The notes under the pieces are model-generated. The model saw only the letters and a list, made by a program, of their open reading frames with translations, was not told the DNA's origin and did no database searches. Source: Candidatus Saccharimonadales bacterium (GTDB lineage Bacteria > Patescibacteriota > Saccharimonadia > Saccharimonadales > JBGSXW01). Taken from it: 64,000 bases of DNA. The stretch covers positions 195,664-259,663 of the forward strand of contig JBGSXW010000005.1 in NCBI GenBank assembly GCA_041751215.1. Direction: 5' to 3'. A program made the translations under genes and the position numbers. Of the stretch, positions 4,706 to 51,945 are shown piece by piece. Positions within the stretch are counted from its first letter, which is position 1. Every line of letters begins with the position of its first letter.

Positions 4706-4726
4706 TTCTAATGTGCGTCCAAGGCT

Positions 4727-4761
4727 AGCCACCCGTCCGCCAACTGGCGGACTACCCCGGA
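4727..4761 (-). repeat. orphan copy of the variant tRNA-Asn 5' half
   Basis: The minus strand reads TCCGGGGTAGTCCGCCAGTTGGCGGACGGGTGGCT. It is identical to 4317..4283 and then diverges at anticodon-loop position 33/34. Confidence 0.6.
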
Positions 4762-4863
4762 TTACGCTAGCTAATTGTAATCGTAACCAGCTGAGGAGTA
4801 AACAGGAAAGAAAACTTGCATTGACTGATATAATTACAAGCATAAGCAGAGTCAACACAAGAT

Positions 4864-5391
4864 ATGCGCGACGATCAACACGGCTTTACTATTATCGAAG
4901 TCGTGCTGGTATTGGCTGTTGCCGGCTTGATTTTTCTGATCGTGTTCGTGGCTTTACCTCAGTTGCAGCGTGCTCGGCGCGACACTCAGCGCAAATCACA
5001 TCTAGGTCAGGTCGCCGGAGCAATTGAATCATTTGCATCAAATAATCGTGGGCTATATCCGACGACCTCAGCCGGTACGTTTGATGACTTTGTAGATGGG
5101 GTAGAAGCGAACTTCATAAGTCCCAGCACTGGTCTTCCGTACGACTATCACTATCGAAGCGTTTCGGGAGCTTGGACTGCCAACACTTCGCCCGACGAGA
5201 TTTATATGGATGGGAGCAACGCTCGTTGTCGTGATCCCGGCGAAGTCCCGATTGGCTCGGAATATAATCCATTTGAATACTTCGATGAAGATCAGCAAGA
5301 TCACCGAAGTCTTGCATCTTTTGCGGTGGTAATTGGATTAGAAACTGGCGGCTGGTACTGCCTAGACAACAGCGGCCCGCAGCTGCCTTAG
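4864..5391 (+). CDS. type IV pilin-like protein with a prepilin-type N-terminal cleavage/methylation domain
   Basis: MRDDQHG|FTIIEVVLVLAVAGLIFLIV shows the G-F-T-x-x-E prepilin motif followed by a hydrophobic helix. 175 aa. Confidence 0.8.
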   Translation: MRDDQHGFTIIEVVLVLAVAGLIFLIVFVALPQLQRARRDTQRKSHLGQVAGAIESFASNNRGLYPTTSAGTFDDFVDGVEANFISPSTGLPYDYHYRSVSGAWTANTSPDEIYMDGSNARCRDPGEVPIGSEYNPFEYFDEDQQDHRSLASFAVVIGLETGGWYCLDNSGPQLP

Positions 5392-5459
5392 CATTATTTA
5401 GTTGACCGAGTTGAGCTAGTTGCCTAAAGTAATGGGTAATTAAGCGTAAGCAAAAAACA

Positions 5460-6431
5460 ATGGATCCAAACAATCAAACCCCTGCGCCGCTAACACCGGA
5501 GCCTCAACAGCCAATGCAACCGCAGCAGCAACCGGCTTCGCCGCCAGATTTTTCTCAAGCTCCACAACCGATGCCTCCACAGGCACCAGCAGCACCTCAA
5601 CCAATGGGAGTCCAGCAGCCTCCAACCCAACAGGTGGATTCGTTTAATCAGCCTCAGGCAACTCCTCCTCAGCCTATGCCCTTGCCTCAGCCGGTCATGC
5701 CGCCACAGCCACCAGCCCCAATGCAACCCCAGCAACCCCCGCAACCATTTACGCCTGATCCGCTGCCGATGGCTCCAGCGCCAAGCAGTGGCGGACTCGG
5801 TAAAATGCCCTTTATCATCGGTGGGGCAGTGCTTTTACTGATTGTCATTGCCTTGGCGGTGTTCTTTTTAGTATTTCAGTCCGATGACTCATCCGGAAGC
5901 TCAAATAGCGAACAACCAGCTACTACAACTACCGATGAATCAACCGACCCAATCGAAGAAGAGCCCGAACCAACCAGCCACTTTATTTCCCAGCCTTGCT
6001 TTACATTCGAAATGCCTCTAGAGGTAAAACCAGACGAAAAAGCTCAGCGCTGTCGAGCACGGGCCTTAGGTCCGCTGGTGTTTGAGATTGTCTTGAATGT
6101 AGATGGCCGGAATTTTGTCGGCGCTAGAAATACTCCCAAGGCCATAATTGATGACTGGATGAACACCAAACAGCGATCGTCGTTCACAAGAACTTTAAGT
6201 AAAAAAACCATTAGTCTTGACGGCATGAAGGCAATCGAGCTGATAGTTAATGATTCAATTTACAAGCGCAAGGATTTTTTCATCGCCGTTGATGTATCCA
6301 AGAAGAACTACCGCAACAACCGCGGAGCAAAGATACCGGTGATGATCATTAACGGTGTTTATGATGACCCTGACCAGCCTGAATTAAAGAAAATTCTGCC
6401 ACTACTTAAACAAACCTGGACCTGGAAGTAG
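5460..6431 (+). CDS. Pro/Gln-rich membrane-anchored protein, unknown function
   Basis: 323 aa. The first ~110 aa are a P/Q-rich low-complexity region. A single TM segment (MPFIIGGAVLLLIVIALAVFFLVF) and an acidic S/T linker follow. The globular C-terminal domain has no motif I recognise. Confidence 0.5.
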   Translation: MDPNNQTPAPLTPEPQQPMQPQQQPASPPDFSQAPQPMPPQAPAAPQPMGVQQPPTQQVDSFNQPQATPPQPMPLPQPVMPPQPPAPMQPQQPPQPFTPDPLPMAPAPSSGGLGKMPFIIGGAVLLLIVIALAVFFLVFQSDDSSGSSNSEQPATTTTDESTDPIEEEPEPTSHFISQPCFTFEMPLEVKPDEKAQRCRARALGPLVFEIVLNVDGRNFVGARNTPKAIIDDWMNTKQRSSFTRTLSKKTISLDGMKAIELIVNDSIYKRKDFFIAVDVSKKNYRNNRGAKIPVMIINGVYDDPDQPELKKILPLLKQTWTWK

Positions 6432-34285: not shown

Positions 34286-34900
34286 CTAAAGTGCTACAAC
34301 TGTGTAAAGAACTGTCTGAGTATAGGTATCGGGAGCAACCCCGAAGTCAGCTCGAGCTCCATACCAAACGTAGGTTGTGTCGCCTAAGGTTGCACTTGAT
34401 GACGTGGTCTTGATGGTTGCCGCGCTACCAAGCAGGGGCATGCCAGCAAAAGTGAGACTAGATGACGGCTGATTAGTAACGGCAGAGGTTGGGCCAGCCC
34501 CAAAACCAGAGAAATCATCAATTCTATAGCCCCACTCATTGCCCGTTAAAACACTCGGGCTTGCTGGGGTTCCAGAAACAGCCGTCAGCTCATCGACTAC
34601 TCCTTCAAGGGAGTTTTCTGTAGCTGATGATGATTCGAGTGTCATGGTATAGCCTGCAGAGCTGTTTGTGATAACGTTGACTTCATCTTCATCAATTGTA
34701 ATGACACCGTCTACGGTTGGCTCGACCGTTAGGCTAACATTACTTATAGTTGCTATGCTAATTTGGCAAGCATCGTTGTAACTGCACCGCCCGTACATAC
34801 TGCGCCCGTACAAGCTCGCGGAGGTAAGTTCATTCTGGGCAACGACTAGTCCACTCAACAGAACAAACCCCAAAACAAGCCTTGATAACGGTCTCTTCAT
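34286..34900 (-). CDS. secreted WxL-like beta-rich surface protein, paralog 1
   Basis: The start is set at MKRPLSRLVLGFVLLSGLVVAQ (signal peptide). SAGYTMTLESSSATENSLEG, GNEWGYRI, TTYVWYGARADFGVAPDTYTQTVLYTVV parallel the two paralogs at 40.4-41.7 kb and the general WxL-domain layout. Confidence 0.55.
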   Translation of the reverse strand: MKRPLSRLVLGFVLLSGLVVAQNELTSASLYGRSMYGRCSYNDACQISIATISNVSLTVEPTVDGVITIDEDEVNVITNSSAGYTMTLESSSATENSLEGVVDELTAVSGTPASPSVLTGNEWGYRIDDFSGFGAGPTSAVTNQPSSSLTFAGMPLLGSAATIKTTSSSATLGDTTYVWYGARADFGVAPDTYTQTVLYTVVAL

Positions 34901-34961
34901 GAGCACTATGTTACCATGCTTATGTATTACAATAGTAGCGATAATCAGGGGAGAAGCAGCG

Positions 34962-35180
34962 ATGCAGAAGCACTTTGAAGCATTGTCACAGCGACACATG
35001 ACTCGGAGAGAATTTCTCCGCAACGTAGGCTTAGTCACATTATCCATTATTGGCGTCGGACGCTTCATAAAGTATTTGGACCAGCCTGGAAAAACTCCAA
35101 GCGGCCCAACAAGAGGCTATGGGCGCAACTCGTTTGGTGGCCGCGGCCGCAAAGCCGTCAAAGCCCAGTCAAAAACTTAG
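34962..35180 (+). CDS. small protein with an RR-containing hydrophobic N-terminus and a Gly/Arg-rich tail
   Basis: MQKHFEALSQRHMTRREFLRNVGLVTLSIIGVG looks like a twin-arginine-type signal. The start choice is uncertain (34962 or 34998). Confidence 0.35.
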   Translation: MQKHFEALSQRHMTRREFLRNVGLVTLSIIGVGRFIKYLDQPGKTPSGPTRGYGRNSFGGRGRKAVKAQSKT

Positions 35181-35257
35181 TAACTTATATCTGTGAAAAA
35201 GTACTTTGAGAGGTGTTTTTCTGCTAGAATAATGCTAATGACTTGGGGAAACAAATA

Positions 35258-37708
35258 ATGCCTAGACTACCCATACCTGGTGGCGACGAAGATACTTGGG
35301 GTGATATCCTCAATGAGTTCTTAGAAGTTGAGCATAACGCTGACGGCACTCAAAAGACAGTGGCTGTCACAAAGGGCGGTACAGGGCGAACCACCGGTAC
35401 TACAGCCTACGGTATTATTGCTGCCGGTACGACCGACACTGGAGCTCAACAAACCATCTCGCCCGGCTCAAGCGGCCAAATCCTAAAGTCCAACGGTGCT
35501 AGCGCGCTGGCTTCATTCCAAACTGGCGCACCAGGGGACGTGGGCTTGGGCAACGTTACCAACGACCTGCAGCTCAAAGCAGCTGATCTTGATATTGACG
35601 ATACGCTAGCGGCCAATAGTGACACTAAAATTGCCAGCCAGCAGGCCACCAAAGCCTATGTAGATAACTTGACTATCGATACTGCTCTCAGCACCGCTGG
35701 CCAACTACTAAAGTCTACTGGCCCAAGCACACTTCCAGCTTTCTCTACTGGCGCACCAGGCGATGTGGGGCTTGGTAATGTTACGAACGACCTCCAACTG
35801 AAAGCCGCTGATCTTGATATCGACGATACGCTAGCGGCCAATAGTGACACTAAAATTGCCAGCCAGCAGGCCACAAAAGCCTACGTAGACACTAATGTTT
35901 CTGGCATTGACGCAGACATCACTACCCTCGAGTCCAAAACTACACCCCTTGATGGTGGCATCTATTTGCGTGACCCCAATTTGCAAGCCTGGTTTGATGA
36001 TATCGATGATCCGGTGGCTAACCCTGTCGACCTGGTGGTTATTGGTGACTCTATTGCCCAGCTTTCTGCCTGGCCAGACGTATTGTATGGACAGCTGGCC
36101 ACTCGATTCAACGTGAATAACAGCAAGACAGTTACTCCAATCGTTGGTTTAAGACACCCCGCCTCAGGTATTGGCATCCCCAAGTTCACCTCTACCATTA
36201 ACGGCACCCAGGTAAGCGGTGCTGGGTCTGGTTTTGCCGGTTGGGCAGTGACTATGACTAATGGCCAGTCTAACGAAACAGTTCATATCTGTGATGGGGT
36301 ATTTATTATCTGGACAGAAGGTACTGGATCACTAATAGTGAAGGATGGTGGGTCTGGCGGTAGCACTGTTGCTACTATTGACACCAGTACTGGCAGTGGC
36401 TATAGCAACATTACGTCTATAGATCTTACGACCTACGCCAGCCACACTATTTACATAGAGTCTTCTGGTAACACCAAGCTTGAGGCTGTTATGCCAACTG
36501 TAGGGAACCGAACGGTGGGAATTCGCGTCTGGCGGGCTGCTCACGCTGGGTACACCACCGCCGGTTTTAACGATCAGCCGGAGTACGCTCTTGATTTTAT
36601 TGATAAACTCAAAGTTCTTTCGGGTAGAGAGCCTCACGTAATCGTGGCCACCGGCTATAACGACGCTGACGGTGCAACCTACGAAACTGAGATAACCGAA
36701 CTGATTACCACCATTCAAACTAAAACTACCGGCTCAATTGCTCTTTGGGTACCTTGGGGTAGGGCCGTGCCACAAGAGCGTCCAACACGAGCCAAACAGA
36801 TAGCTGAAAGCATGGGGTTGGGTCTAATTGATGCCAACAGAGCCTTCGGGAGTGTCTCCAGTGTTGCAGATTTAAACAACCTATCGGATGATCACATTCA
36901 TCCCAATAACAATGGTGTTGCAGCTCTCGCCACGCAGGCGCTGGCGGTATTAAGTGGCGATCCACTCGGCTCGCTCGTGACCATGATTCAGGGCAACACT
37001 GGTCTACAGTTTCGTGGCAACCTAACCGGTAACGTTACGGGTAATGTGACTGGTGCCTTTGACCTGGACTTAGGGGCAACAGGACGCTTGCAAGCAGCTA
37101 ATATATTCGGTTATCCTGGATTAACGCTACATAACGACTCGGCTGACGCTCAAGCATCAATGGCCTTCTACCCAGCCGGCCTAGCCGCATTCTTGTCTTA
37201 TCCAGCTGCATCACTTGCTTTTGGAGCTGGTGGAGCTACGTCACTTGATGTAGCGTTGTCTCGGTCTGCAGCAGGAGTTTTAACAGTCTATGGGGGGTCT
37301 GGCGCATCCCTCGGAAATATTGTGACAAGTTTAATTCGAAATAGCGCTGGTTCACCAGAATCAGTAGTCAGCGCACCAGTTGGTGCAATCTGCCACGACA
37401 CCACAAACGGTGATTTATACGTGAAAGAATCAGGCACGGGCAATACAGGTTGGGTGGCTTTAAGCACAGGAGGGGGTGGTGGATCTGTTTCTGACACCGC
37501 ATACGCCGACTCATGGAATGGGGTAACAACTGACGCGCCATCAAAGAACGCGGTATACGATGCCCTTAACACCAACGGCAAAGGGTTTGTAAATCACGGC
37601 TCAACTGCTAGTACCGCCAGACCGGAAGGCTTCGCATCGGTCGAATGGTACGGTACAGTCGAGCCAGATAACATAGCAGCAGGAGATACTTGGATTGACC
37701 CAAGTTAA
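35258..37708 (+). CDS. phage tail-fibre-like protein with a central SGNH/GDSL hydrolase domain
   Basis: The N-terminus MPRLPIPGGDEDTWGDILNEFL and the motifs DTKIASQQATKAYVD (x2), LYVKESGTGNTGWVAL and AYADSWNGVTTDAPSKNAVYDAL resemble actinophage minor-tail/tail-fibre proteins. VVIGDSIAQ (the GDS block) and DDHIHPNNNG (DxxH) define the SGNH esterase. ATG 35258 is preferred over TTG 35243. Confidence 0.7.
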   Translation: MPRLPIPGGDEDTWGDILNEFLEVEHNADGTQKTVAVTKGGTGRTTGTTAYGIIAAGTTDTGAQQTISPGSSGQILKSNGASALASFQTGAPGDVGLGNVTNDLQLKAADLDIDDTLAANSDTKIASQQATKAYVDNLTIDTALSTAGQLLKSTGPSTLPAFSTGAPGDVGLGNVTNDLQLKAADLDIDDTLAANSDTKIASQQATKAYVDTNVSGIDADITTLESKTTPLDGGIYLRDPNLQAWFDDIDDPVANPVDLVVIGDSIAQLSAWPDVLYGQLATRFNVNNSKTVTPIVGLRHPASGIGIPKFTSTINGTQVSGAGSGFAGWAVTMTNGQSNETVHICDGVFIIWTEGTGSLIVKDGGSGGSTVATIDTSTGSGYSNITSIDLTTYASHTIYIESSGNTKLEAVMPTVGNRTVGIRVWRAAHAGYTTAGFNDQPEYALDFIDKLKVLSGREPHVIVATGYNDADGATYETEITELITTIQTKTTGSIALWVPWGRAVPQERPTRAKQIAESMGLGLIDANRAFGSVSSVADLNNLSDDHIHPNNNGVAALATQALAVLSGDPLGSLVTMIQGNTGLQFRGNLTGNVTGNVTGAFDLDLGATGRLQAANIFGYPGLTLHNDSADAQASMAFYPAGLAAFLSYPAASLAFGAGGATSLDVALSRSAAGVLTVYGGSGASLGNIVTSLIRNSAGSPESVVSAPVGAICHDTTNGDLYVKESGTGNTGWVALSTGGGGGSVSDTAYADSWNGVTTDAPSKNAVYDALNTNGKGFVNHGSTASTARPEGFASVEWYGTVEPDNIAAGDTWIDPS
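35474..35892 (+). repeat. intragenic tandem duplication (2 x 225 nt, 75 aa) within the tail-fibre-like gene
   Basis: GQ(I/L)LKS..GAPGDVGLGNVTNDLQLKAADLDIDDTLAANSDTKIASQQATKAYVD occurs twice. The 3' ~75 nt of each unit are nearly identical at the DNA level, whereas the 5' parts differ at synonymous sites. Confidence 0.85.
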
Positions 37709-37714
37709 ATAATT

Positions 37715-38593
37715 ATGGCAAAGAGATACGTATATGACGGAACGGATTTAAAACGATTGGACGCACCAATCAGCTTTATGACACCCCTTCTACCCGACAA
37801 TGTGGATCCAGCTACCACTGGTGTTACTGCAATAACCTGTGTTGGTTCAGCTTCTCCTAATCAGTTTTCTACTCCTGGCTCATGGGTAGAGATAGACGCC
37901 TCATTGTCGGCTGATGCAGCCGGAATAATGTTTACACCAAGCGCCAATGTATTCTCCTCAGGCGTTAACACTTCAACTTTGATCCAAATCGGAACCGGTG
38001 CAGCCGCCGCGGAAACAGTGTGGGCTACAGTCTGTGTGTCCCAACTCACAACTTCACCAATTCTCTACATACCTGGATACATTGCTGCTGGCACTAGAGT
38101 TTCGGTTAGAGTGTTTAGTGCAGCACAGACAAGTAAAAGTGCCAGCATAAAGTACACTTTTGCTTCAGGGTCTAACATTTCTGCTCCGACAACCTATAAC
38201 GGGGCGAGTCCGGCCTCAAATGCTCAGGGTGTCAGCGTCCCATGGTCTGGAGCGGTCAACACAGAGGGCGACTGGACAGAAATTGTAGCCTCAACCACGG
38301 ACGACATTGATGTTATTGGTTTATTCGTAGGAACGGCTGGCGACGCTGCGACTGGTAACGCACAGTTTCAGGTAGATGTTGGATACGGCGCAGCTAGCTC
38401 AGAAGTTGCCTTAGCCGAGCATGTTACTTTTACCGTCGGAACAGCTGAGCAGCTCACTCCCCAATCAGTAAACGCATTTCAATTGCCAGAAACTATACCA
38501 GCAGGTTCGCGTTTAGTCGCAAGACTGCAGACTGGAACAGGTGCATCGGTTTCAGCTGTTGACGTAACCTTGGTAACGGCGAAAAAGCCCTAA
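37715..38593 (+). CDS. hypothetical protein with an internal two-domain duplication, coupled to the tail-fibre-like gene
   Basis: 292 aa, Ala/Thr/Ser/Gly-rich. The halves share W-EI-AS...D..GI/L, IQIGTGAAAAE vs QVDVGYGAASSE, and IAAGTRVSVRV vs IPAGSRLVARL. It starts 7 nt after the upstream stop. Confidence 0.5.
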   Translation: MAKRYVYDGTDLKRLDAPISFMTPLLPDNVDPATTGVTAITCVGSASPNQFSTPGSWVEIDASLSADAAGIMFTPSANVFSSGVNTSTLIQIGTGAAAAETVWATVCVSQLTTSPILYIPGYIAAGTRVSVRVFSAAQTSKSASIKYTFASGSNISAPTTYNGASPASNAQGVSVPWSGAVNTEGDWTEIVASTTDDIDVIGLFVGTAGDAATGNAQFQVDVGYGAASSEVALAEHVTFTVGTAEQLTPQSVNAFQLPETIPAGSRLVARLQTGTGASVSAVDVTLVTAKKP

Positions 38594-38678: not shown

Positions 38679-39461
38679 CTAAGTAAACAGTAGAATCAAC
38701 AGCACAATAAAAGCAATCAAGGAAACTAACCTAACAACTCGAGTTAGAGGCACTCCCCAGAGAAGAGTGGTGTTGCTGATTCCAAAATCTGATAACAACC
38801 TGACAGCAAAGAACATCACACCCACTAAAAGAATGCTTGTAACAAAGCCAGTCCAATAAACAATTGGGCTAACTAAGCTATCGATAATGGTTGAGGCATT
38901 TTTGCTATCAATATCAATACGAAGTTTATCCCACAGCCTCTCAATAGGCGGGACATCTTCAGGCTCTTGCTCGCTCGTTACCACCACGCCTCCATCACTG
39001 TCATCGTCCCCAGAGGAAGGATCGGGTACACCGGTATCAATATCTCCACCATCTGAAGGTTGAGCAGCCGGTCTGTATGTTACGACAACAGTACTAACCG
39101 AAGAAGTTTGATTACAGCTAAAATATCCTTCAACACGGATCAAGTTGTCTCCTTCCAGTAGTGCAATCGTAGTTTCAAAATCCCCATCGGGTTCAATAGC
39201 CAACGACTGTGAATAGCTGTCGTTGATGAAAATGTCAATCTGGGTGGTACGCTGAGTTGTGCCGCCTAAGCCTACATTAGCGGTTGAGACGATACTGTCA
39301 GACACCGGCTCCTCTATGGTAATTTCCGGTGTGGATACTTCATCGCACAGTGTTGTGCGCACAGTGTTACTCTCTGCGTGAGCAGTGGAATTTGCTAAGG
39401 CAGAGACTCCGAGCATAACCAGTAACAGAGCATAGAAGCCGGTCTTTGTAAGTAGCTTCAT
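38679..39461 (-). CDS. membrane protein with a signal peptide, an Ig-like beta domain, an acidic linker and a C-terminal multi-TM anchor
   Basis: 260 aa. The order is MKLLTKTGFYALLLVMLGVSALANSTAHA, a beta-rich domain, a D/G/S/E-rich linker and 3 C-terminal TM segments. No family recognised. Confidence 0.5.
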   Translation of the reverse strand: MKLLTKTGFYALLLVMLGVSALANSTAHAESNTVRTTLCDEVSTPEITIEEPVSDSIVSTANVGLGGTTQRTTQIDIFINDSYSQSLAIEPDGDFETTIALLEGDNLIRVEGYFSCNQTSSVSTVVVTYRPAAQPSDGGDIDTGVPDPSSGDDDSDGGVVVTSEQEPEDVPPIERLWDKLRIDIDSKNASTIIDSLVSPIVYWTGFVTSILLVGVMFFAVRLLSDFGISNTTLLWGVPLTRVVRLVSLIAFIVLLILLFT

Positions 39462-39473
39462 GCATCCACCGAT

Positions 39474-40385
39474 TTATTTCTTCTTGTGTGTCGTCCGACG
39501 CTTTTGTGCCTGTGGTTTAACTACAAACCACAGGAAGCCTGCCGCGGCTAAGCCTGCAAGTATCCTCATCAACGAAGTTGGGAACAGGATAATCCACTGC
39601 TGTTCCAATTCTTCTGTGCCATCGAGCAAGCTTACGGTACCGCTCGCTTTGTAAATTCCAAAATACGGCGCACTATCCCAGTCGAAGACTACTCTTCTGG
39701 TTGTGCCTGGCAAGACCAGCACTTGCTGGTTGTTTTCATACTGCTTTTTGCCAAATATACTTGTGTACGTAACGCTAATATCAGATTGGAAGTGAACGTT
39801 ACCGGTGTTTTCAACACGAATGCTACTGGAAACGGGCTGTTTGGTCTGGAGTGTTTCTACGTCCCAGCTCGCCAGGCTACCCTTTTCAATTATGTCACCG
39901 GCGATTGTCATGTAGAGTAGTGACCCGACCCGTTTCTTACGTGCAACACTACTGTCTTCTTCTGGCGGTTGGGTTTCAGCAAACAGCACCGAGTAATGAC
40001 CGCCTGGAGCGGCGTCATCCGGCACCGTTACGGTGTAGCTTACCTCTACGCGCTGACCTGCCTTAAGTGATATCTTTGTTCGTGCAAACTCGACCCATTG
40101 ATAAGCCTCGGTGCGCTCGTTAACTTCAGTGTAATTTGGTTCGTAGGCTTCGTTACTAACAGAGAAAGGCCTTGCGTAAAGTAAGAATGTATATGGCACT
40201 GTACCGTCGTTGATGATAGTCAGTTTACCTTTGGCTTTTTGACCAGCAGCAAGTTCTGGTCTAGCAATTGCCGGAGAAAGAGTTATTCTCTCTTCGTTTG
40301 CCTCTTGAGCGGATGCTCTGTCTGGTATAAAAATCCCCCCTAATATAGCAACGCCAAGCGCTGCAATTATCAGCAGTTTCTTCAT
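39474..40385 (-). CDS. DUF916/DUF3324-like cell-surface protein (CscA-like)
   Basis: 303 aa. A signal peptide is followed by two beta-sandwich-like halves (ITLSPAIARPELAAGQKAKGKLTIINDGTVPYTF...; IRVENTGNVHFQSDISVTY...). The C-terminus has a TM segment plus the basic tail KRRTTHKKK. This layout is the one found next to WxL genes in Firmicutes. Confidence 0.55.
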   Translation of the reverse strand: MKKLLIIAALGVAILGGIFIPDRASAQEANEERITLSPAIARPELAAGQKAKGKLTIINDGTVPYTFLLYARPFSVSNEAYEPNYTEVNERTEAYQWVEFARTKISLKAGQRVEVSYTVTVPDDAAPGGHYSVLFAETQPPEEDSSVARKKRVGSLLYMTIAGDIIEKGSLASWDVETLQTKQPVSSSIRVENTGNVHFQSDISVTYTSIFGKKQYENNQQVLVLPGTTRRVVFDWDSAPYFGIYKASGTVSLLDGTEELEQQWIILFPTSLMRILAGLAAAGFLWFVVKPQAQKRRTTHKKK

Positions 40386-40447
40386 TCACAACTCCTTTTC
40401 TTTCCTGCAACTACGTTAAAGTATACAGTAAAAACTTCACCAGAAAA

Positions 40448-41044
40448 TCAGTTTGTTGTTGCGGTATAAGTAACAGTATCGCTGTAAGTACCGTTCGGGT
40501 TGGAGGTATCGGCCTTAACTGAGTACCAAACTGTTGTGGTGTCGTTCGAAGCAGTTGTACCAGTGGTCTTGATGGTGTTTGCCGCGCCATCGGCTGGTAC
40601 GCCGGCCCACACAGTAGAGCTGCTGGCAACGTTGTCTAGTGCGGAGTAGCTTCCATCAAAACCACCGACAGTCGCGACAGCGTAGCCCCAGGTATTGTTG
40701 GCTAGTGCACTTGGTGAAGCTTGGGTGCCAGCGTGAGCAGGTATGTCGTTGCCGCCGTTAACAAGATCGGTATTGGCATCGCTATCTGCGAGAGTCAAGT
40801 TATATCCAGATGCGTTATTCGTCGAAACGGTTACGGTGTCTGAAGCACTGGTTTGTGAACCACCACTGACAGGAGTGACGTTAAGCGTAACGGTACCGGA
40901 AGAACTGATGCTGATAACAGATGCGATACTGGCATTAATGGTAGTAGTATCAGAGTCAGTAGCAGCCATAACTGTTACGGGGGTTAGTATTAGTGATCCA
41001 AGACCTAAAGAGGCTCCTAGTACTAGTTTGCTTTTTTTACTCAT
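40448..41044 (-). CDS. secreted WxL-like beta-rich surface protein, paralog 2
   Basis: The start is set at MSKKSKLVLGASLGLGSLILTPVTVMA. The N-terminal ~125 aa are almost identical to paralog 3. It ends in TVWYSVKADTSNPNGTYSDTVTYTATTN. Confidence 0.6.
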   Translation of the reverse strand: MSKKSKLVLGASLGLGSLILTPVTVMAATDSDTTTINASIASVISISSSGTVTLNVTPVSGGSQTSASDTVTVSTNNASGYNLTLADSDANTDLVNGGNDIPAHAGTQASPSALANNTWGYAVATVGGFDGSYSALDNVASSSTVWAGVPADGAANTIKTTGTTASNDTTTVWYSVKADTSNPNGTYSDTVTYTATTN

Positions 41045-41115
41045 ATGATGATCGCTCCCTTTTATGTTGTTCTTCGTATGTTGTTTAGTATAAAACATAA
41101 GCTGTTTGGCGGCAA

Positions 41116-41730
41116 TCAGTTTGTTGTTGCGGTATAAGTAACAGTATCGCTGTATGTACCGTTAGGATTGGAGGTATCGGCCTTAACTGCATACCAAACT
41201 GTTGTAGTGTCGCCAGCGGCAGTTGTACCAGTGGTCTTGATGGTGTTTGGGGCACCACTAGCTGGCACACCGGCGTAAGTTATCGTGCTGGTTGTAACGT
41301 TACTCTCAACTGCACCGCCAGTAGAAAAGCCACCGATGCTGTCTACTCGGTAGCCCCAGGTATTGTTGGCTAGTGCACTTGGTGAAGCTTGGGTGCCAGC
41401 GTGAGCAGGTATGTCGTTGCCGCCGTTAACAAGATCGGTATTGGCATCGCTATCTGCGAGAGTCAAGTTATATCCAGATGCGTTATTTGTCGAAACGGTT
41501 ATTGTGTCCGAAGCACTGGTTTGTGAGCCGCCACTGACAGGAGTAACGTTGAGTGTGACGGTGCCAGAAGAACTGATGCTAATAGTTGAGCCGAGGTTGG
41601 CATTAATTGTAGTGGTGTCGGAGTCGGTAGCAGCCAGAACTGTTACGGGTAGTGCAATAACGCCTACCAGCAACAACAATGCGTTTACGCTAAAGAGTTT
41701 CAAGATTGATTTCTGATTTGATTGAGCCAT
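41116..41730 (-). CDS. secreted WxL-like beta-rich surface protein, paralog 3
   Basis: 204 aa with a signal peptide. NASGYNLTLADSDANTDLVNGGNDIPAHAG, NNTWGYRV and TVWYAVKADTSNPNGTYSDTVTYTATTN are present. Confidence 0.6.
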   Translation of the reverse strand: MAQSNQKSILKLFSVNALLLLVGVIALPVTVLAATDSDTTTINANLGSTISISSSGTVTLNVTPVSGGSQTSASDTITVSTNNASGYNLTLADSDANTDLVNGGNDIPAHAGTQASPSALANNTWGYRVDSIGGFSTGGAVESNVTTSTITYAGVPASGAPNTIKTTGTTAAGDTTTVWYAVKADTSNPNGTYSDTVTYTATTN

Positions 41731-45540: not shown

Positions 45541-45771
45541 ATGAGAGACATTAAGCCACAGTCCAAAACTATCAACAGCGATGTAATTAAGCACAGTCAG
45601 CTTAATCGTCAGACCTTGAGTTCAATTGAACACGAGCATGGCGGTTCAGTTAAATCCAGCGGCACCAAGATTAGCCCCCAGGCCATTAAGCTAATTGCGC
45701 TTGGTGGAGCCCTGATAGCACTGATTATTTTGGTTGCTGTGGCTTGGATATTTATGAAGGTATTATTCTGA
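45541..45771 (+). CDS. small C-terminally anchored membrane protein
   Basis: 76 aa with a C-terminal TM segment (LIALGGALIALIILVAVAWIF). Its stop overlaps the next ATG (TGATG), suggesting translational coupling. Confidence 0.4.
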   Translation: MRDIKPQSKTINSDVIKHSQLNRQTLSSIEHEHGGSVKSSGTKISPQAIKLIALGGALIALIILVAVAWIFMKVLF

Positions 45772-46373
45772 TGGATAAGGAGCGTTTCTTTCTTACCGAT
45801 TTGTTGGCGTCTAGCACCGGGGCTATATTTGTTTCTGGTTTGATCAGTGTTTTGCTGCCGATTTTTGTCTTGTGGGACGGAATCAATCAACGCTACATAA
45901 GTCAGGGCCTAATTGCCTTTGAAGTTAAAGCTGGCGACACCTCGGAGTTGCTTTTTGCTTACATTCCAAAAGAAGCACTAGGGACTATTAGTACGGCGAT
46001 TTTTTGGGGCCTGGCTGCAATGCTCGGCATCTTTATTGTTTGGATAGTAGAGTCAACGTATCGGCGAATTGTTTCAGTGTTAACTGTCGCGGCAGATTAC
46101 GAAAACAAATCACTTGGCTATATGGGTGAGGTTGCAAAGCTACTTATTGAGCGCATTGTTGTTGCAATTGTTGCAATGGGAGCACTGCTAGTTGTTTTGA
46201 AGTTAGTGATTCCTAAAATAATATCGCTCATTAGTCTTAGCTTACTTGCGAGTGAGGTCACGGTTTTTAGCGTATTGCTCACGCTATTTTGGATAGCGAT
46301 GCTTTGGCTGCTGTTGGTTGCCAGTTGGCTGATCGCAAAATTAACGTTTCAGAGCGTGAGCGCTGACGTTTAG
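45771..46373 (+). CDS. hypothetical polytopic membrane protein
   Basis: About 200 aa with 5-6 TM segments. ATG 45771 is preferred over TTG 45744. Confidence 0.5.
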   Translation: MDKERFFLTDLLASSTGAIFVSGLISVLLPIFVLWDGINQRYISQGLIAFEVKAGDTSELLFAYIPKEALGTISTAIFWGLAAMLGIFIVWIVESTYRRIVSVLTVAADYENKSLGYMGEVAKLLIERIVVAIVAMGALLVVLKLVIPKIISLISLSLLASEVTVFSVLLTLFWIAMLWLLLVASWLIAKLTFQSVSADV

Positions 46374-46385
46374 TTTATAGTTTGG

Positions 46386-47069
46386 CTAAAGGGGATAAAA
46401 TCTAAACAGCGCAGAGCCTTGGATTAGTTCAAGTGGCACAGTTCCTAGTCCGGTTCGTGAATCGTATGACCCGCCCGGCGAGCGGTTGTCGCCGGCAACA
46501 AAGATGTGATCAGCCGGAACAAACGTCTCGGCGTCGCCAGTTAGAGGGTGCTTTAGCTGGTCTAGGTAAGCTTCATCTGGATTAAATCCATCAGGGTTAG
46601 CATCGTTATAGACAGTGACAACTCCGCCCCTTAAGACTACTCGCTCGTCGGGGAGTCCGATCACTCGTTTTACAAATTGCTCGTCTGGGTTTTCTGGACT
46701 AATAAAGGTTATGATTTCGCCGCGCTTGGGTATAAAAGTCGAGCCAGTTATCGAAGAAATAGTTCGACCAAAAGCGTTTATGATCAATCGATCGCCGTCC
46801 TCATAAGTCGTTAACATGCTAGTGCCGTCTACCTGGTAGGTTCTTAAGCCCCACTGCAGCAGCGCGACAAAAAATAGCAAGATAAGCACCAAGAAGCCCA
46901 GATATTTTACAAGAGCAGACAGCAGGGTCGGCTCAACATTGCTGATTGTACCTACAGCTCCATCTGCATCTGGGCTGATCTTAGTAAAAGCATCGTAGGC
47001 TTCTGGTCGAATGTGGATGGAGCCGTCGTTGTCGTGTGATGGTTGTTGGTTGGGTTGTGGTGAATCCAT
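46386..47069 (-). CDS. lepB: signal peptidase I
   Basis: GTSMLTT carries the catalytic Ser and VKRVIGLPDERV the Lys box. GDNRSPGGSYDSR is also present. One N-terminal TM segment. Confidence 0.85.
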   Translation of the reverse strand: MDSPQPNQQPSHDNDGSIHIRPEAYDAFTKISPDADGAVGTISNVEPTLLSALVKYLGFLVLILLFFVALLQWGLRTYQVDGTSMLTTYEDGDRLIINAFGRTISSITGSTFIPKRGEIITFISPENPDEQFVKRVIGLPDERVVLRGGVVTVYNDANPDGFNPDEAYLDQLKHPLTGDAETFVPADHIFVAGDNRSPGGSYDSRTGLGTVPLELIQGSALFRFYPL

Positions 47070-47188
47070 ATCATAAGGATGATAGCACTCTTGAGGTTAT
47101 TCTGCTTGCGCTTAGAGTCCAGTCGTGGTTTACTGATGGCATATTGTAAAAATAAACACAAAATAAAACACAAAAAGGGGAAACTCTA

Positions 47189-47797
47189 ATGCCCGCCAAA
47201 AAAAAGCCAGAAACAAGCAAAACTGCTAAGAAGCAGCCAGCACCTACATTAAAGTCATCAAACAAGAATAAACTTCTATTAGCAGTCGTAGTATTAGCGG
47301 TTGCGTTAGTGGCTGGATTCTTTGTTTACAGAAGCCAAGCAGCTACTCACGTAGCTACAGTGGTGGCAACCAACTCGCTTACTTCAGAACGCAATATCAC
47401 AAAGTATAGAAACGGGGCGTTCAGGAAATTATCTGCGAACTTAGGTAAAAGCGCTGTTGATGTTGTGTGGATAAAAAAGGGGTATGATTTTTGGATGATC
47501 GCTCCGACATCAACCGATGGACGGCACAAGGCCTGCTTCGAGCTCTTTCTTTCTAAAAAGGCAACCCAGGTTAGACTTGATGTATACAGGCAGCAAACGG
47601 CCACAAATAATTTTCAGCCTTCGCCTTATATCCTAACGTTCAACGATCCCACGAAGACAATACCGGCTAAAAAGACTCTTCAGACTCACTGTGTTGAGTT
47701 CTACTCAAATATCAAAAATACTAAAGCGTATTATGGTGTCGTGACACCTATTGGCGGCAACGTTAACGTGCGCAAAGTAACCGTAATAAAGCTTTAG
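47189..47797 (+). CDS. secreted/anchored protein of unknown function, tandem family member 1
   Basis: A Lys-rich N-tail and a TM/signal segment end in YRSQAATHVATVVA. Conserved Cys residues are KACFELF and THCVEF. The C-terminus is RKVTVIKL. Confidence 0.6.
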   Translation: MPAKKKPETSKTAKKQPAPTLKSSNKNKLLLAVVVLAVALVAGFFVYRSQAATHVATVVATNSLTSERNITKYRNGAFRKLSANLGKSAVDVVWIKKGYDFWMIAPTSTDGRHKACFELFLSKKATQVRLDVYRQQTATNNFQPSPYILTFNDPTKTIPAKKTLQTHCVEFYSNIKNTKAYYGVVTPIGGNVNVRKVTVIKL

Positions 47798-47806
47798 GGA
47801 ATAGCC

Positions 47807-48355
47807 ATGGCTAACAAAAAAACCAAAAACATTTCTTTACCCAAAAACCGCAAGAAAATCTTGATCTTAATATCAATTCTGCTGGTATCGCTAGTTGGTA
47901 CATTCTTTTTATATCGCAGCCAGGCGGCAACGCATGTTGCGACTATAGTTGCATACCACAATTTTCCGGGCCATCTTAATAGCAAGTATTATCGACCCGT
48001 AACTATTCCGGTAGGCAAGAGCACCGATAAAGCGGTCTGGATAGCTAAAAGTACTACGGCGTACAATACCGGATTCAGCATTAAAAGTGGTGTTAAGTTT
48101 TCATCAGGGGTTTCCTACCGAGCCTGCTTTCAGTTCTACAACAAGAATCCCAATACCATTTTGCTTACAGTTAGCGATGGAGATTACGTTAGGCGTGAAG
48201 TCAATCGGGTCACAGTGAATACTCAGGGTAGCCCAAGTATCCAACAGCGATGCATGGACTTTAGACTTAGCAATCCCAGTTCTGAATTATGGTTTAAGCA
48301 CAAACCACTTGCCTATAACGGGATTTTCTATAAAGTAACCGTAATCAAACTCTAA
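47807..48355 (+). CDS. tandem family member 2
   Basis: The N-terminus is MANKKTKNISLPKNRKKILILISILLVSLVGTFFLYRSQAATHVATIVA. Also RACFQFY, QRCMDF and a C-terminal YKVTVIKL. Confidence 0.6.
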   Translation: MANKKTKNISLPKNRKKILILISILLVSLVGTFFLYRSQAATHVATIVAYHNFPGHLNSKYYRPVTIPVGKSTDKAVWIAKSTTAYNTGFSIKSGVKFSSGVSYRACFQFYNKNPNTILLTVSDGDYVRREVNRVTVNTQGSPSIQQRCMDFRLSNPSSELWFKHKPLAYNGIFYKVTVIKL

Positions 48356-48364
48356 GTAACAACC

Positions 48365-48919
48365 ATGGCTAACAAAAAAACTAACAAGATCTCTTTACCC
48401 CGAAATCGTAATAAAATTCTTGTTATCGCAACAATTCTGTTGGTATCCGTAGTCGGTACGTTCCTGGTATATCGCAGCCAAGCAGCAACGCATGTTGTAA
48501 CTATCGTGGCGAAAGATCAGGCAACTACCCTAGATGGTTACGGTAGCACTGTTAAACTCTTCACAATTCCTGCGGGCAAAGGTACCTTGCCCGGACTCTG
48601 GGTCAAGAAAGGAAAAGGCGTAGGCCTAAGCCACCAAGCTTCTTATGCCAAAGGCGCTACATATCAAGCCTGCTTTGCGCTATATAACACCAAAGACAAT
48701 AAAGTTAGGCTAAAGGTCACAGGATGGAATGGTACTGGCTATAATTCAGACATCGTTGACTTATCTGAACGGATAATCAGCATAGCTGGGCAGAAGAATA
48801 AAACCCAAAGTCACTGCGTTAAATTCAAGCCAGACCAACCTTATTCGCGGGTCATGCTTGGGTATGAGCCACTTGGAATGAATGGAGTTATTCATAAAGT
48901 AACGGTCATCAAACACTAA
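48365..48919 (+). CDS. tandem family member 3
   Basis: The N-terminal 49 aa are about 80% identical to member 2. Also QACFALY, SHCVKF and a C-terminal HKVTVIKH. Confidence 0.6.
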   Translation: MANKKTNKISLPRNRNKILVIATILLVSVVGTFLVYRSQAATHVVTIVAKDQATTLDGYGSTVKLFTIPAGKGTLPGLWVKKGKGVGLSHQASYAKGATYQACFALYNTKDNKVRLKVTGWNGTGYNSDIVDLSERIISIAGQKNKTQSHCVKFKPDQPYSRVMLGYEPLGMNGVIHKVTVIKH

Positions 48920-48931
48920 GAGGAAATAATT

Positions 48932-49516
48932 ATGCCAAGCAAAAAAAACAGCAAGCCCAAGGCAACTCCAAAGACATCCGCTTCAAGCCCAAAATTAAAT
49001 GTTAATAGGGCAACCAAGCAGAAAATACTGATGACGGTAGTTGTACTTCTAGTAGCACTAACAGCGGGACTGTTCGTGTACAGGAGTCAGGCAGCCGCTG
49101 GTGACATCAAGCGTTCCGCCCCACAAATGAACGGGGGAGTTTGTGTCTATGTTAACACCGGTAAAAGCTACAAGTGCATAGAGCGCACCCTGGTAAGACC
49201 GGTAAGCGTAACGATACCTGTTTATAGCGGCAGTAACGGCTCGGCCAAAAAAGTTTGTATTAACGGACGGGATGCGCGCAACGTGATTAACAAAATCCAT
49301 GCCAGTCTTTCAATCCGAAACGGAGTAAACCGAGGCTATGACGACGGAGTAAATGTTCGTTCGGGCTGGGTGCAAAGCTGGAGCTTTGGTTTGCCATCAG
49401 GAACTTCATACGTAACTCTTAAATTTGCTGGTACAAAATCTGGTGGATCAGACAGTTTAGCTCGCATACGCGATGTTGTAATCCGCAATACAAGCAAAGC
49501 CGGCTGTCAGCCGTAA
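48932..49516 (+). CDS. tandem family member 4 (divergent)
   Basis: It has the same N-tail/TM layout ending in VYRSQAAAG. The body differs and carries 4 Cys, ending in VVIRNTSKAGCQP. Confidence 0.5.
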   Translation: MPSKKNSKPKATPKTSASSPKLNVNRATKQKILMTVVVLLVALTAGLFVYRSQAAAGDIKRSAPQMNGGVCVYVNTGKSYKCIERTLVRPVSVTIPVYSGSNGSAKKVCINGRDARNVINKIHASLSIRNGVNRGYDDGVNVRSGWVQSWSFGLPSGTSYVTLKFAGTKSGGSDSLARIRDVVIRNTSKAGCQP

Positions 49517-49517
49517 A

Positions 49518-50102
49518 CTAAATCCTATCAATTTTTTGCTGGTGCTTATTGCTTGGTTTTGAGTAGGTTTTATAGACAATAAATACCGAAAGCAACACAA
49601 CATATAGCGGAAACAGAACTGTCTCGGCGTTGTAAGTGGTAAGCGACATCAAGCCTAACACACCAGATAACACCGCAATCGCCCAAAAGCTGCGAGACTC
49701 AGAAGTCGGATCAATAGTAAGTTTTCTGATTGTTAAGGTTGCCCCAATACCGTCAATGAAGAGCGCCAACAACAGACTAACTAACACGCCTTCTAGTACA
49801 AACAGCAAGACAAAGGCCGCTAAAGCCAGCACCAGAGAGTAGATGTCGAATCGGCTTTTGCCGCCCACCCCGTACTTTAGTGACAGTAGCAAGATAATTC
49901 CGGGTCCGATTAGTTCTCCGAACGTCATTAGGATCGCACCGTCCTCAAAGACGGCAGAAAAAAAGTAGGTTCCACCAAGCAAGGTCCACAATAGCCAAGA
50001 AATTCTCTCAGGTCTGGCTTGACCTTTTAGAATCTCGAATACGTAGGGAATATTGGCTGATAACGATGCAATTAGCGCTGCTACCGCTAAGGCTTCTTTC
50101 AT
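49518..50102 (-). CDS. hypothetical polytopic membrane protein
   Basis: 194 aa with about 6 TM segments. No family recognised. Confidence 0.5.
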   Translation of the reverse strand: MKEALAVAALIASLSANIPYVFEILKGQARPERISWLLWTLLGGTYFFSAVFEDGAILMTFGELIGPGIILLLSLKYGVGGKSRFDIYSLVLALAAFVLLFVLEGVLVSLLLALFIDGIGATLTIRKLTIDPTSESRSFWAIAVLSGVLGLMSLTTYNAETVLFPLYVVLLSVFIVYKTYSKPSNKHQQKIDRI

Positions 50103-50169: not shown

Positions 50170-50739
50170 CTATTTCTTGTCTTGACTGCCCTTGACGGCC
50201 GATTCTACGGCGTCGCGTGGTAAGGAAGCTGCTGAGAGCAGAGCTTCTCGAACTGTATCTATCGCATCGCCACCCACGCTGGTTGCGGCGTCTAAAGCGC
50301 CACCAACTGCGGATTTGGCTGCTTCTGAAGTATCGCCGCCAACATCACCGGCTGCCTTAACAGCACCCTGGACGGCGGCTACAGCTGCCGTACCAATGTC
50401 ACCACCGGTGTCGGCAGTTCCTTTTACAATACCTTCGGCACCGCCGCGTACTGCGTCGATTACATCACCGCCAACTTGGCTGACACCGTTTACGATGCCG
50501 CTCATAGTGCTGGTTGCCGTGTCAGTTAGTGATGAACCAACATCACCGGCACCCTTAATTGCGCCGCTGGCAACCGATGCGATTGCTTCGACTCCAGACC
50601 CGCCGATCTCGCCTGTACCTTTTAGTACATTAACGACTTGGTCTTTTACGCTACCAGTAATTGCGTCTAAAATATTATCTACACCCGTAACTGCTGTAGT
50701 TACTGCGTTTGCTGTCTCTTCGATTATTTTTGCAAGCAT
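50170..50739 (-). CDS. Gly/Ala/Val/Asp-rich tandem-repeat protein
   Basis: 189 aa with no signal peptide. Repeats of about 19-27 aa are of the type GGD(V/I)..A(V)..GA..(I/V)KG(A/T). AAGGGGG SD 4 nt upstream. The opposite-strand ORF 50192..50806 is its mirror image. Confidence 0.55.
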   Translation of the reverse strand: MLAKIIEETANAVTTAVTGVDNILDAITGSVKDQVVNVLKGTGEIGGSGVEAIASVASGAIKGAGDVGSSLTDTATSTMSGIVNGVSQVGGDVIDAVRGGAEGIVKGTADTGGDIGTAAVAAVQGAVKAAGDVGGDTSEAAKSAVGGALDAATSVGGDAIDTVREALLSAASLPRDAVESAVKGSQDKK

Positions 50740-50850: not shown

Positions 50851-51390
50851 TTATTTAGCCCGAACACCACTCGGCTTGATTACCCACCACAGACCTCCAT
50901 GGGTGCTGATGTTGTGGCACTCTACCTCTCCCGGCCCCTCATGGGCGTAGTAGTAGAGAGGGTGGCCGTTGTATGTAACCTGAGTGCTGCCGTCAGTGCG
51001 TTTGGTGGTGCCAAGCAAGTCAGCCTTGACGCTACCCGTTGCACGTGGTGCTCCGTTTGTAAGTACAGGTGGCCAGGCTTTGGCACAGTCCCCATAACAC
51101 TCAGCTTTGCTTGACTCTTCTACTTCCCAGATGTAGATGGCCTGCTGTTCATCGTTAAACAGCATCGGACCAAACTCACTGTCGCTAGTGGTTATGACTG
51201 TTCCGGTTGCTTCTTTCTTTTCTTCAGGCTCATTCTCTTGCGGCTCTTCGGTAGTTTCCTGGCTGCTTACAGGTTCACTGCTATCAGTGTTTGCTTGGTA
51301 TAAGAAATACCCAGCACCGGCAATTCCGATCACAGAGACAATCACAACCAACAAGACCAAACCAAAGCCGTTCTCGCTTTTGAGTATCAT
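50851..51390 (-). CDS. secreted-repeat protein (COG4315/lipoprotein_15-like), membrane-anchored
   Basis: The start is set at MILKSENGFGLVLLVVIVSVIG. CYGDCAKAWPP and QVTYNGHPLYYYAHEGPGE...GGLWWVIKPSG match the Y-x-Y-x-x-D secreted-repeat family pattern. Confidence 0.6.
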   Translation of the reverse strand: MILKSENGFGLVLLVVIVSVIGIAGAGYFLYQANTDSSEPVSSQETTEEPQENEPEEKKEATGTVITTSDSEFGPMLFNDEQQAIYIWEVEESSKAECYGDCAKAWPPVLTNGAPRATGSVKADLLGTTKRTDGSTQVTYNGHPLYYYAHEGPGEVECHNISTHGGLWWVIKPSGVRAK

Positions 51391-51480
51391 GAACTGATTA
51401 TATAACATAAGCATCAAAGCCGGGGCAGGATAAATCTCAGCGGCAGTAAGTGTGGCTCGGCAGGATAGTACAATGTATGT

Positions 51481-51945
51481 ATGACCGAGTTTGAAAACGA
51501 ATTTGTAGAAGCTGCACGCTCTCACTTAGGTGAGCCATTTTTGCACCATTTTATTCCAGAAGATTTATGTGATCGTGGTGCTAGGACTGAGGATGACTGT
51601 ATGGAACGTGGTTTGGGCGAGGATGGCTTTGATTGTAGTGGGCTGGTGGTTGTAAGTGCCTGCGAAGTCTTGGGAGTTAACGCAAGCGATTGGCCGCGCG
51701 AGTTCAGACACGCGAGACAGCTCGAGAGCTTAGCCGAAGAAAGGGAGCCAAACTTTGGCGAGGTAGGCCTGTTCTACTCGGCAAAGAGCCCCTACCCCCA
51801 CATGGGAATCTTGGTCACTAAACGAAGCATTATACATGCAGACGGACTTGACCCAAGAATGGTAGTGGAGCGTGAAGTCGCTGGAGGAGTTACGGCAGTT
51901 AAAGCAATCTCTACCTCTAGCCTTTTGGAGGCGGGGAGCAAGTAG
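51481..51945 (+). CDS. NlpC/P60 (C40) family peptidase-like protein, no signal peptide
   Basis: GFDCSGLVV carries the catalytic Cys, with PHMGILV (His) and IIHAD also present. Confidence 0.65.
   Translation: MTEFENEFVEAARSHLGEPFLHHFIPEDLCDRGARTEDDCMERGLGEDGFDCSGLVVVSACEVLGVNASDWPREFRHARQLESLAEEREPNFGEVGLFYSAKSPYPHMGILVTKRSIIHADGLDPRMVVEREVAGGVTAVKAISTSSLLEAGSK

Follow-up and report, generated by a model that had tools for sequence, protein, structure and literature searches.

The gene array

The subject of this work is a tandem array of four genes in a 64-kb stretch of a Candidatus Saccharimonadales contig (JBGSXW010000005.1); the whole of that stretch, at its full 64 kb, is called the window. 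The array represents a new family of a familiar kind, probably one of cell-surface binding proteins, rather than a fast-evolving set of toxins or effectors. Relatives lie on other contigs, designated L001, L002, L005, L006, L007, L009/L010 and L011. The features of the array are as follows (aa, amino acids; nt, nucleotides; ↓, point of cleavage):

47189-47797, + strand: member 1, 202 aa; leader at residues 1-51 (K-rich tail of 28 aa, hydrophobic h-region at residues 29-47, then RSQA↓A as the predicted cut); predicted jelly-roll body with the Cys pair; C-terminal KVTVIKL
47807-48355, + strand: member 2, 182 aa; leader at residues 1-40; predicted jelly-roll body
48365-48919, + strand: member 3, 184 aa; leader at residues 1-40; the protein used for structural modelling
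48932-49516, + strand: member 4, 194 aa; same leader, unrelated body with four Cys, predicted to be beta-rich
47774-47952, + strand: junction repeat, consisting of the 3'-terminal 24 nt of a gene, a 9-nt spacer and the initial 146 nt of the next gene
47106-47134, + strand: candidate array promoter, TTGCGC, 17 nt, TTTACT, the latter preceded by TGg

The four open reading frames (ORFs) are consecutive, lie on the + strand and span 47189-49516. The intergenic gaps are 9, 9 and 12 nt, in agreement with a preliminary description of this DNA, made from its letters, in which four co-oriented genes 9-12 nt apart were reported. The ribosome-binding sites of the array genes overlap the stop codons of the genes upstream, and this overlap, together with the short gaps, suggests that the array is one operon. 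The 179-nt junction unit found at the boundary between members 1 and 2 reappears at the boundary between members 2 and 3 (48332-48510), with 78% DNA identity.

What might drive the operon? The candidate element TTGCGC-17-TTTACT lies in the spacer that separates member 1 from lepB, the divergent signal peptidase gene described below, and the lepB-array spacer of L006 conserves the element in sequence and spacing, as TTGCGC-17-TTTAAT, again preceded by TG. On the strength of this conservation we regard TTGCGC-17-TTTA(C/A)T as a candidate promoter from which the whole array would be transcribed. A generic scan for promoter and terminator consensus sequences performed at chance level, and the TTGCGC-17-TTTACT element was absent from its list. 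An Rfam scan of the window returned tRNAs only.

In members 1-3 alike we find both Cys contexts picked out earlier, as well as the C-terminal KVTVIK(L/H). As had also been proposed, member 4 keeps only the leader: compared with the family profile, its body gave an hhalign probability of 0.07%, and it is unrelated to the other three at the sequence level.

A shared leader

Each of the four leaders begins with a basic tail of 17-31 aa, which carries a charge of +6 to +9 and at most one acidic residue. There follows an uncharged hydrophobic stretch of 19 aa, with Tyr as its final residue, and then RSQAA. The Lys-rich tail, hydrophobic segment and YRSQAA of the preliminary description are thus found in all four members. 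In a six-frame translation of the window YRSQAA has no occurrence outside the four array genes, and among the window ORFs with an N-terminal hydrophobic segment, none besides the array members has such a leader.

Is the leader a signal peptide? To the window's leaders we aligned those of six other contigs (L001, L002, L005, L006, L007 and L009/L010) and of leader-only hits, for a total of 22; P0016, a looser leader-only hit with a charge of +2/-3, was omitted. Across the 22 leaders the basic n-region is unusually long, 17-38 aa, with a charge of +6 to +13 and 0-1 acidic residues. The h-region is near the upper limit of the usual length, with 17-20 uncharged residues of which the last is Tyr (Phe in two leaders). 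Mean column identity is about 40%. Position -1 is Ala in every leader, and position -3 is Ser in 21 of the 22 and Thr in the other one. Tyr at -5 and Gly at -10 each occur in 20 leaders, and +1 is Ala in 18 and Pro in none. A test for a lipobox found no Cys in any of the 22. Since the conservation at -3 and -1 is that of the signal peptidase I rule, cleavage by that enzyme at S-x-A↓A is the best reading of the pattern. The earlier view that these genes form a real paralog family with an export-type leader is borne out, and the top conserved positions of the leader are the -3 and -1 of a signal peptidase I site.

It is possible to read the same segment as an uncleaved signal-anchor. If so, the array proteins would be type II membrane proteins that show their jelly-roll domain on the cell surface, and Y-R-S-x-A-A would be an interface or packing motif. 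A core of 17-20 aa can span the membrane, and its length is unusually constant. Conservation of the leader above that of the cargo would be explained more easily if the leader were part of the mature protein. In the structural model of member 3, described below, the helix of residues 15-39 is continuous into the motif, and other envelope proteins of the window show similar N-termini, a transmembrane segment and then Tyr, without SxA. However, an anchor offers no reason for the fixation of -3 (Ser/Thr in 22 of 22) and -1 (Ala in 22 of 22), and there is no linker from the helix to the first beta strand, so that the domain would be pressed against the membrane. We consider an uncleaved anchor plausible, though less likely than cleavage.

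A second question is whether the array proteins are type IV pilin-like subunits, from which a prepilin peptidase would trim the basic tail, leaving helix and beta domain to build a pilus. Basic tail, hydrophobic helix and beta sandwich do resemble those of archaeal pilins. There is a weak match to Pfam Pilin_N (E 0.024; 16 bits, where the cutoff is 25.2), and another weak match (E 0.34) is to 6w8u, the molecule of which is named 'pilin'. But the boundary between tail and helix, Lys followed by Leu, Ile or Phe, lacks both a Gly, Ala or Ser at -1 and a Glu at +5, and none of its columns is conserved. There is no N_methyl match, conservation is greatest at the far end of the helix, and the canonical pilin of the window, MRDDQHG↓FTIIE, shows what the organism's class III signal actually is. 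We find the pilin reading hardly credible, and it was rejected because the class III motif is missing from the array members. The canonical type IV pilin gene lies at 4864-5391 (+), with an N_methyl motif (PF07963, 9e-6), and downstream of it is a gene for a 323-aa Pro/Gln-rich protein with one transmembrane segment (5460-6431).

How has the leader been kept so constant? The leaders pair, member 1 with member 4, at 75% identity over the h-region and the short c-region that follows it, and member 2 with member 3, at 71%; in a separate measurement the leaders of the latter pair were 73% identical, and the preliminary figure of about 80% was somewhat high. That the body of member 4 is unlike that of member 1 despite their close leaders suggests cargo replacement behind a retained leader, or else divergence past recognition. 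Synonymous sites in the leader codons vary freely (pS 0.53-0.96), and therefore the peptide has been kept by selection, not homogenised by recent gene conversion; to judge from its codons, then, the leader is maintained by purifying selection. The same leader precedes unrelated bodies both in the window (member 4) and in other contigs. One leader-sharing relative carries a cupredoxin domain, which is an extracytoplasmic domain.

The mature domain

An AlphaFold2 (AF2) model of member 3, built on a 10-sequence alignment of the family, has a pLDDT of 82.7 and a pTM of 0.71, and shows a helix (residues 15-39) with about 10 beta strands after it. When the model was compared with the Protein Data Bank (PDB) by Foldseek, carbohydrate-binding modules (CBMs) of families CBM16, CBM6, CBM4, CBM22 and CBM61 came out on top, with E of 1.6e-5 to 2e-4 and a probability of 1.00. 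Further matches in the PDB were to the ligand-binding domains of Eph receptors and to the jelly-rolls of Cry protoxins, and matches in BFVD were to tail-fibre and CBM-like modules. The family profile also had a weak match (E 1.2e-8) in a protein composed of four CBM_4_9 repeats. The fold class of the modelled body is that of the galactose-binding-domain-like beta jelly-roll, typically a binding module. For member 4, a model made without an alignment had a pLDDT of 47.6 and was unusable.

The family has no model in Pfam or NCBIfam, and none of the four proteins found a match there. The earlier statement that no known domain is recognisable thus stands at the level of sequence. At the level of structure it gives way to a CBM-like jelly-roll, a binding module rather than a recognisable toxin.

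How closely do the array proteins resemble known CBMs? Like the modules of the CBM_4_9 group (CBM4, CBM9, CBM16 and CBM22) and CBM6, which provide top Foldseek matches, they have an extracytoplasmic beta jelly-roll of about 140 aa, and their I-P-x-G-K-x-T-x-x-A-x-W-V-K-K aligns with V-P-V-G-Q-S-H-T-F-S-V-W-V-K of the protein with four repeats. Unlike them, the array proteins fall below the Pfam model, stand alone rather than being appended to an enzyme, and are marked by two invariant Cys and by a conserved N-terminal strand with His and Thr.

The 10-sequence alignment has invariant residues at Y36, A40, H43, T46, G71, K82, C103, Q148, C151, K178 and T180 (member 3 numbering), and about a dozen additional positions are near-invariant. 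The two Cys, C103 and C151, are present in 10 of 10 sequences, a pattern compatible with a disulfide formed outside the cytoplasm. Members 2 and 3, the mature parts of which had been called barely alignable, in fact align with 34% identity over 134 positions (70 bits). We also asked whether the mature N-terminus might be like the amino-terminal copper- and nickel-binding (ATCUN) motif, NH2-X-X-His; this was ruled out, as the distance of the invariant His from the predicted cut varies by member, from 3 to 5 residues.

Rarity and distribution

The family is extremely rare. Each of the four array proteins is a singleton cluster at 90%, as, too, are the housekeeping proteins of the window. An exhaustive profile search of 1.84 billion representative proteins yielded just seven further full-length members, most of them in tandem arrays, and a few proteins that share only the leader. 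Word-indexed homologue searches were near-empty: member 3 retrieved only itself, the family profile retrieved 5 proteins and the leader profile 3. No relatives of the family were found in collections of phages, plasmids and viral contigs, and matches to PHROG were insignificant. When a genome collection was scanned with a DNA pattern of the leader there were no hits, and with the LepB alignment there were 53 pattern hits, none of which was confirmed. A pattern scan of metagenomes gave two chance matches, neither with an ORF.

Tandem arrays bearing the leader are found on L001, L002, L005, L006, L007 and L011, and family bodies are often mixed with unrelated ones. L007 also encodes a 347-aa protein (4716-5759) in which the same leader is followed by two tandem jelly-roll-like bodies. 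The first of these matches the family profile (hhalign 97.5%), and the second is similar to the first gene of L002, which is truncated (3-503). A solitary gene flanked by rnc and rpsP encodes one member of the family, and therefore neither lnt nor lepB, both of which are neighbours of the window array, is an obligatory companion.

Age and mode of evolution

Is the array a recent expansion? In the mature domain, member 1 groups with the second array protein of L006 (a2) and a 200-aa protein of L005, and member 3 groups with a 189-aa protein of L005 and the first array protein of L006 (a1). It follows that the paralog subtypes arose before the nearest relative, L006, split off, and by this grouping, as by the saturation of synonymous sites, the array is old. 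In the comparison of the window with L006, identity is 47-65% for the flanking genes and 31-42% for the array proteins. The array thus evolves a little faster than the genes around it, but nothing shows positive selection or rapid turnover. Synonymous sites are saturated in leader and body alike, and this saturation leaves the ratio of nonsynonymous to synonymous divergence (dN/dS) without an estimate.

The preliminary description took a rapidly diverging payload behind a common leader as the mark of a host-interaction, effector or bacteriocin-like family. On such a reading the proteins would be diversifying secreted effectors, toxins or bacteriocin-like proteins, in which a constant export tag carries a payload under positive selection for interaction with a host or competitor. 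Nonsynonymous divergence (pN) is 0.18-0.34 in the leader versus 0.44-0.55 in the body, the array proteins are less conserved than their flanks, and the leader is common to unrelated bodies. The host, moreover, may be a reduced, host-associated monoderm. With dS saturated, however, positive selection cannot be shown. The paralog subtypes common to the window and its relative predate their split, and the mature domains hold about 20 invariant or near-invariant residues over 10 sequences, on a conserved, CBM-like fold. No gene for a toxin, an immunity protein or a dedicated transporter was found near the array, there is no PHROG, phage or plasmid link, and the signal of the phytoplasma sequence-variable mosaic (SVM) proteins is not matched. 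We think an effector role improbable.

The SVM comparison deserves a word. Phytoplasma SVM proteins have a conserved signal peptide and a variable mature part. The array is like them in that its leader is conserved above its cargo, one leader goes with unrelated cargo, and the genes are clustered. It is unlike them in that the SVM_signal model is not matched at E<=0.1, members 1-3 carry as their cargo a fold that is old and conserved, not a mosaic, and no mobile-unit context is seen around the array.

Neighbouring genes: lepB and lnt

The genes that precede the array are these:

46386-47069, - strand: lepB, bacterial-type signal peptidase I (PF10502, 6.5e-28; TIGR02227, 7e-30)
45744-46373, + strand: conserved multi-pass membrane protein of 209 aa, probably starting at 45771; its syntenic counterpart in L006 is 54% identical
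45541-45771, + strand: 76-aa protein with a C-terminal transmembrane helix; syntenic in L006, 47% identity
43848-45575, - strand: Lnt homologue (LNT_N and CN_hydrolase), with conserved Glu-Lys-Cys catalytic triad

A real signal peptidase I gene thus adjoins the array in divergent orientation, as first described; the array is not downstream of it, since lepB and member 1 are head-to-head, 119 nt apart. LepB has the expected boxes (SM..., KRVIG and GDNR..S.DSR) and is 65% identical to its L006 counterpart. It also has a conserved cytoplasmic N-extension of about 55 aa (residues 1-55), in which the block HDNDGSIHIRPEAYDAFTK is nearly the same in the L006 orthologue (HENDGSIHIRPEAYDAFTK), an unusual degree of conservation ahead of the membrane anchor. 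The gene order of L006 is that of the window: lnt (-), 76-aa protein (+), membrane protein of about 200 aa (+), lepB (-), array (+). The 209-aa membrane protein weakly resembles (E 0.002) a membrane protein that follows the L007 array. On the other side of the array, a gene for a 194-aa multi-pass membrane protein with no family match (49518-50102, -) converges on member 4, the stop codons being 1 nt apart.

Lnt homologues lie beside leader-bearing arrays at L001 9120-10562, L007 2741-4165 and L006 1876-3477, as well as in the window. This adjacency spans two deep clades, window/L006 and L001/L007, across which Lnt is 28-29% identical, and its arrangement varies: in L001 the array is followed by lnt, in L007 lnt overlaps the first array gene, and in the window and L006 the two are divergent. 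All 4 homologues keep the Glu-Lys-Cys triad, and solved Lnt structures are matched by the profile at about 4e-10. Among the window ORFs of at least 100 aa, none was found to have a lipobox.

A signal peptidase gene beside secreted jelly-roll genes that share a distinctive leader is a feature of the tapA-sipW-tasA, or SipW-cognate, class, and the array is alike in this respect. Might the array proteins then be TasA-like fibre subunits that the adjoining signal peptidase processes and whose N-terminal strand mediates polymerisation by donor-strand exchange, the paralogs supplying major and minor subunits? The jelly-roll fold, the several paralogs per locus and the presence of an adjoining signal peptidase gene in two genomes (window and L006) are in keeping with this idea, and the best-conserved mature segments are the N-terminal strand just past the cut and the C-terminal strand. 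The models for Peptidase_M73/TasA and for the SipW-cognate signal, TIGR04088, are unmatched at E<=0.1, though, and the peptidase is the bacterial P-type (TIGR02227), not the SipW/ER type. TasA is missing from the top 50 fold matches, and adjacency to lepB is not universal, being absent from the other clade. We attach little probability to fibre assembly of this kind.

Proposed role of the array proteins

What, then, do the array proteins do? We lean, with some reserve, towards an old tandem array of lineage-restricted, Sec-exported, CBM-like jelly-roll binding proteins, in which the leader acts as export tag. In this scheme the one operon would be driven from the conserved promoter in the lepB-array spacer. 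Each precursor would consist of the long basic tail, the hydrophobic core of 17-20 aa and the fixed end G-x4-Y-(R/K/S)-S-x-A↓A, and signal peptidase I, most simply the LepB encoded head-to-head with the array, would cleave after the invariant Ala. Cleavage would free a domain of about 145 aa that opens with a conserved strand, (A)T-H-V-x-T. For the released domain the prediction is a CBM4/9/16/22-type (galactose-binding-domain-like) beta jelly-roll, which a disulfide joining its two invariant Cys probably pins, and which is most likely an extracellular binding module for a glycan or cell-surface ligand. The paralogs would differ in their loops and hence in specificity. Because the leader also serves unrelated cargo (member 4 and proteins of other contigs), it would be a family-specific export tag under purifying selection.

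Several observations weigh against this proposal. The 19-aa hydrophobic core with its 4-residue c-region would equally suit an uncleaved anchor. No member matches the Pfam CBM_4_9 model at E<=0.1, and the members thus fall outside that family; when a single CBM_4_9 repeat was compared with the array family the hhalign match was weak (probability 4.6%), centred on the (I/V)PxG...WVK strand pair. The TM of 0.4-0.5 obtained in the Foldseek matches fixes the fold class of the modelled body, not its function. Adjacency to lepB is missing in L001, L007 and L009, and it may be that the cell has no housekeeping peptidase besides LepB. Finally, the recurrent adjacency to lnt is left unexplained.

Could Lnt act on the array proteins directly? 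In the established Lgt-Lsp-Lnt lipoprotein pathway Lnt is a component, and the array is like that system in that a triad-intact Lnt homologue adjoins leader-bearing arrays in two deep clades. It is unlike it in that the leaders have no Cys or lipobox, and the neighbouring peptidase is of type I, not type II. One can imagine that the leader is the signal of an undescribed route, in which cleavage by LepB at S-x-A↓A would expose an alpha-amino group for N-acylation by the Lnt homologue. Such a route would explain why a leader without a lipobox lies beside lnt in clades whose Lnt proteins are so diverged, why the adjacency has outlasted local rearrangement, and why +1 is nearly constantly Ala. 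If the route existed, diverse cargo would be membrane-tethered in a monoderm cell by a Cys-independent lipid anchor. We regard the idea as a long shot.

Exported binding proteins, as we prefer to see the array members, would add an unannotated jelly-roll family of extreme rarity, all occurrences of which to date are in monoderm bacteria that are poorly sampled and probably reduced. Should glycans of a host or of the environment prove to be their ligands, the proteins might form the surface by which such organisms attach or capture nutrients. With the motif G-x4-Y-[RKS]-S-x-A-A, preceded by a long Lys-rich tail, further exported cargo can easily be looked for in these lineages, and the repeated adjacency of lnt raises the question of Lnt's role where the neighbouring exported proteins carry no lipobox. 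The leader class and its association with Lnt are the parts of this work that most deserve attention.

Other features of the window

Heliorhodopsins are typical of monoderm bacteria, and the window encodes one at 2061-2825 (-) (PF18761, E 3.7e-97). Among bacteria of the candidate phyla radiation (CPR), heliorhodopsins have been reported mainly in Saccharimonadia (PMC9166423).

A cluster of surface-protein genes occupies 38679-41730 (-). It includes near-duplicate proteins of 204 and 216 aa with a WxL-like C-terminal motif (NTWGY ... GTYSDTVTYTATTN), a protein resembling DUF916/WxL-interacting proteins (39474-40385) and a Glucodextran_B-like protein with C-terminal transmembrane segments (38679-39461). 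A third relative of the 204- and 216-aa pair is encoded at 34286-35068 (-). Between this gene and the cluster, 35243-38593 (+) encodes an 821-aa protein, whose N-terminal part bears a PIPGGDEDTWGDILNEFL motif and within which a unit of about 70 aa (GAPGDVGLGNVTNDLQLKAADLDIDDTLAANSDTKIASQQATKAYVD) occurs twice, and then a 292-aa orphan; neither was significantly matched in Pfam or PHROG. The window also encodes many orphan proteins. Taken with the heliorhodopsin, the type IV pilin and the WxL-like surface proteins, they would fit a sparsely sampled monoderm, possibly a CPR bacterium like the Saccharimonadia.

Beyond the array, the gene at 50851-51525 (-) encodes a Lipoprotein_15 (PF03640) protein, the N-terminal transmembrane segment of which ends in GAGYFLYQAN and which has no lipobox Cys. 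The gene at 50170-50739 (-) encodes a 189-aa protein rich in Gly, Ala, Val and Asp, in which GGD(V/I)...A(V/A) segments recur; the protein lacks a signal peptide, and its similarity to Phasin_2 is sub-threshold.

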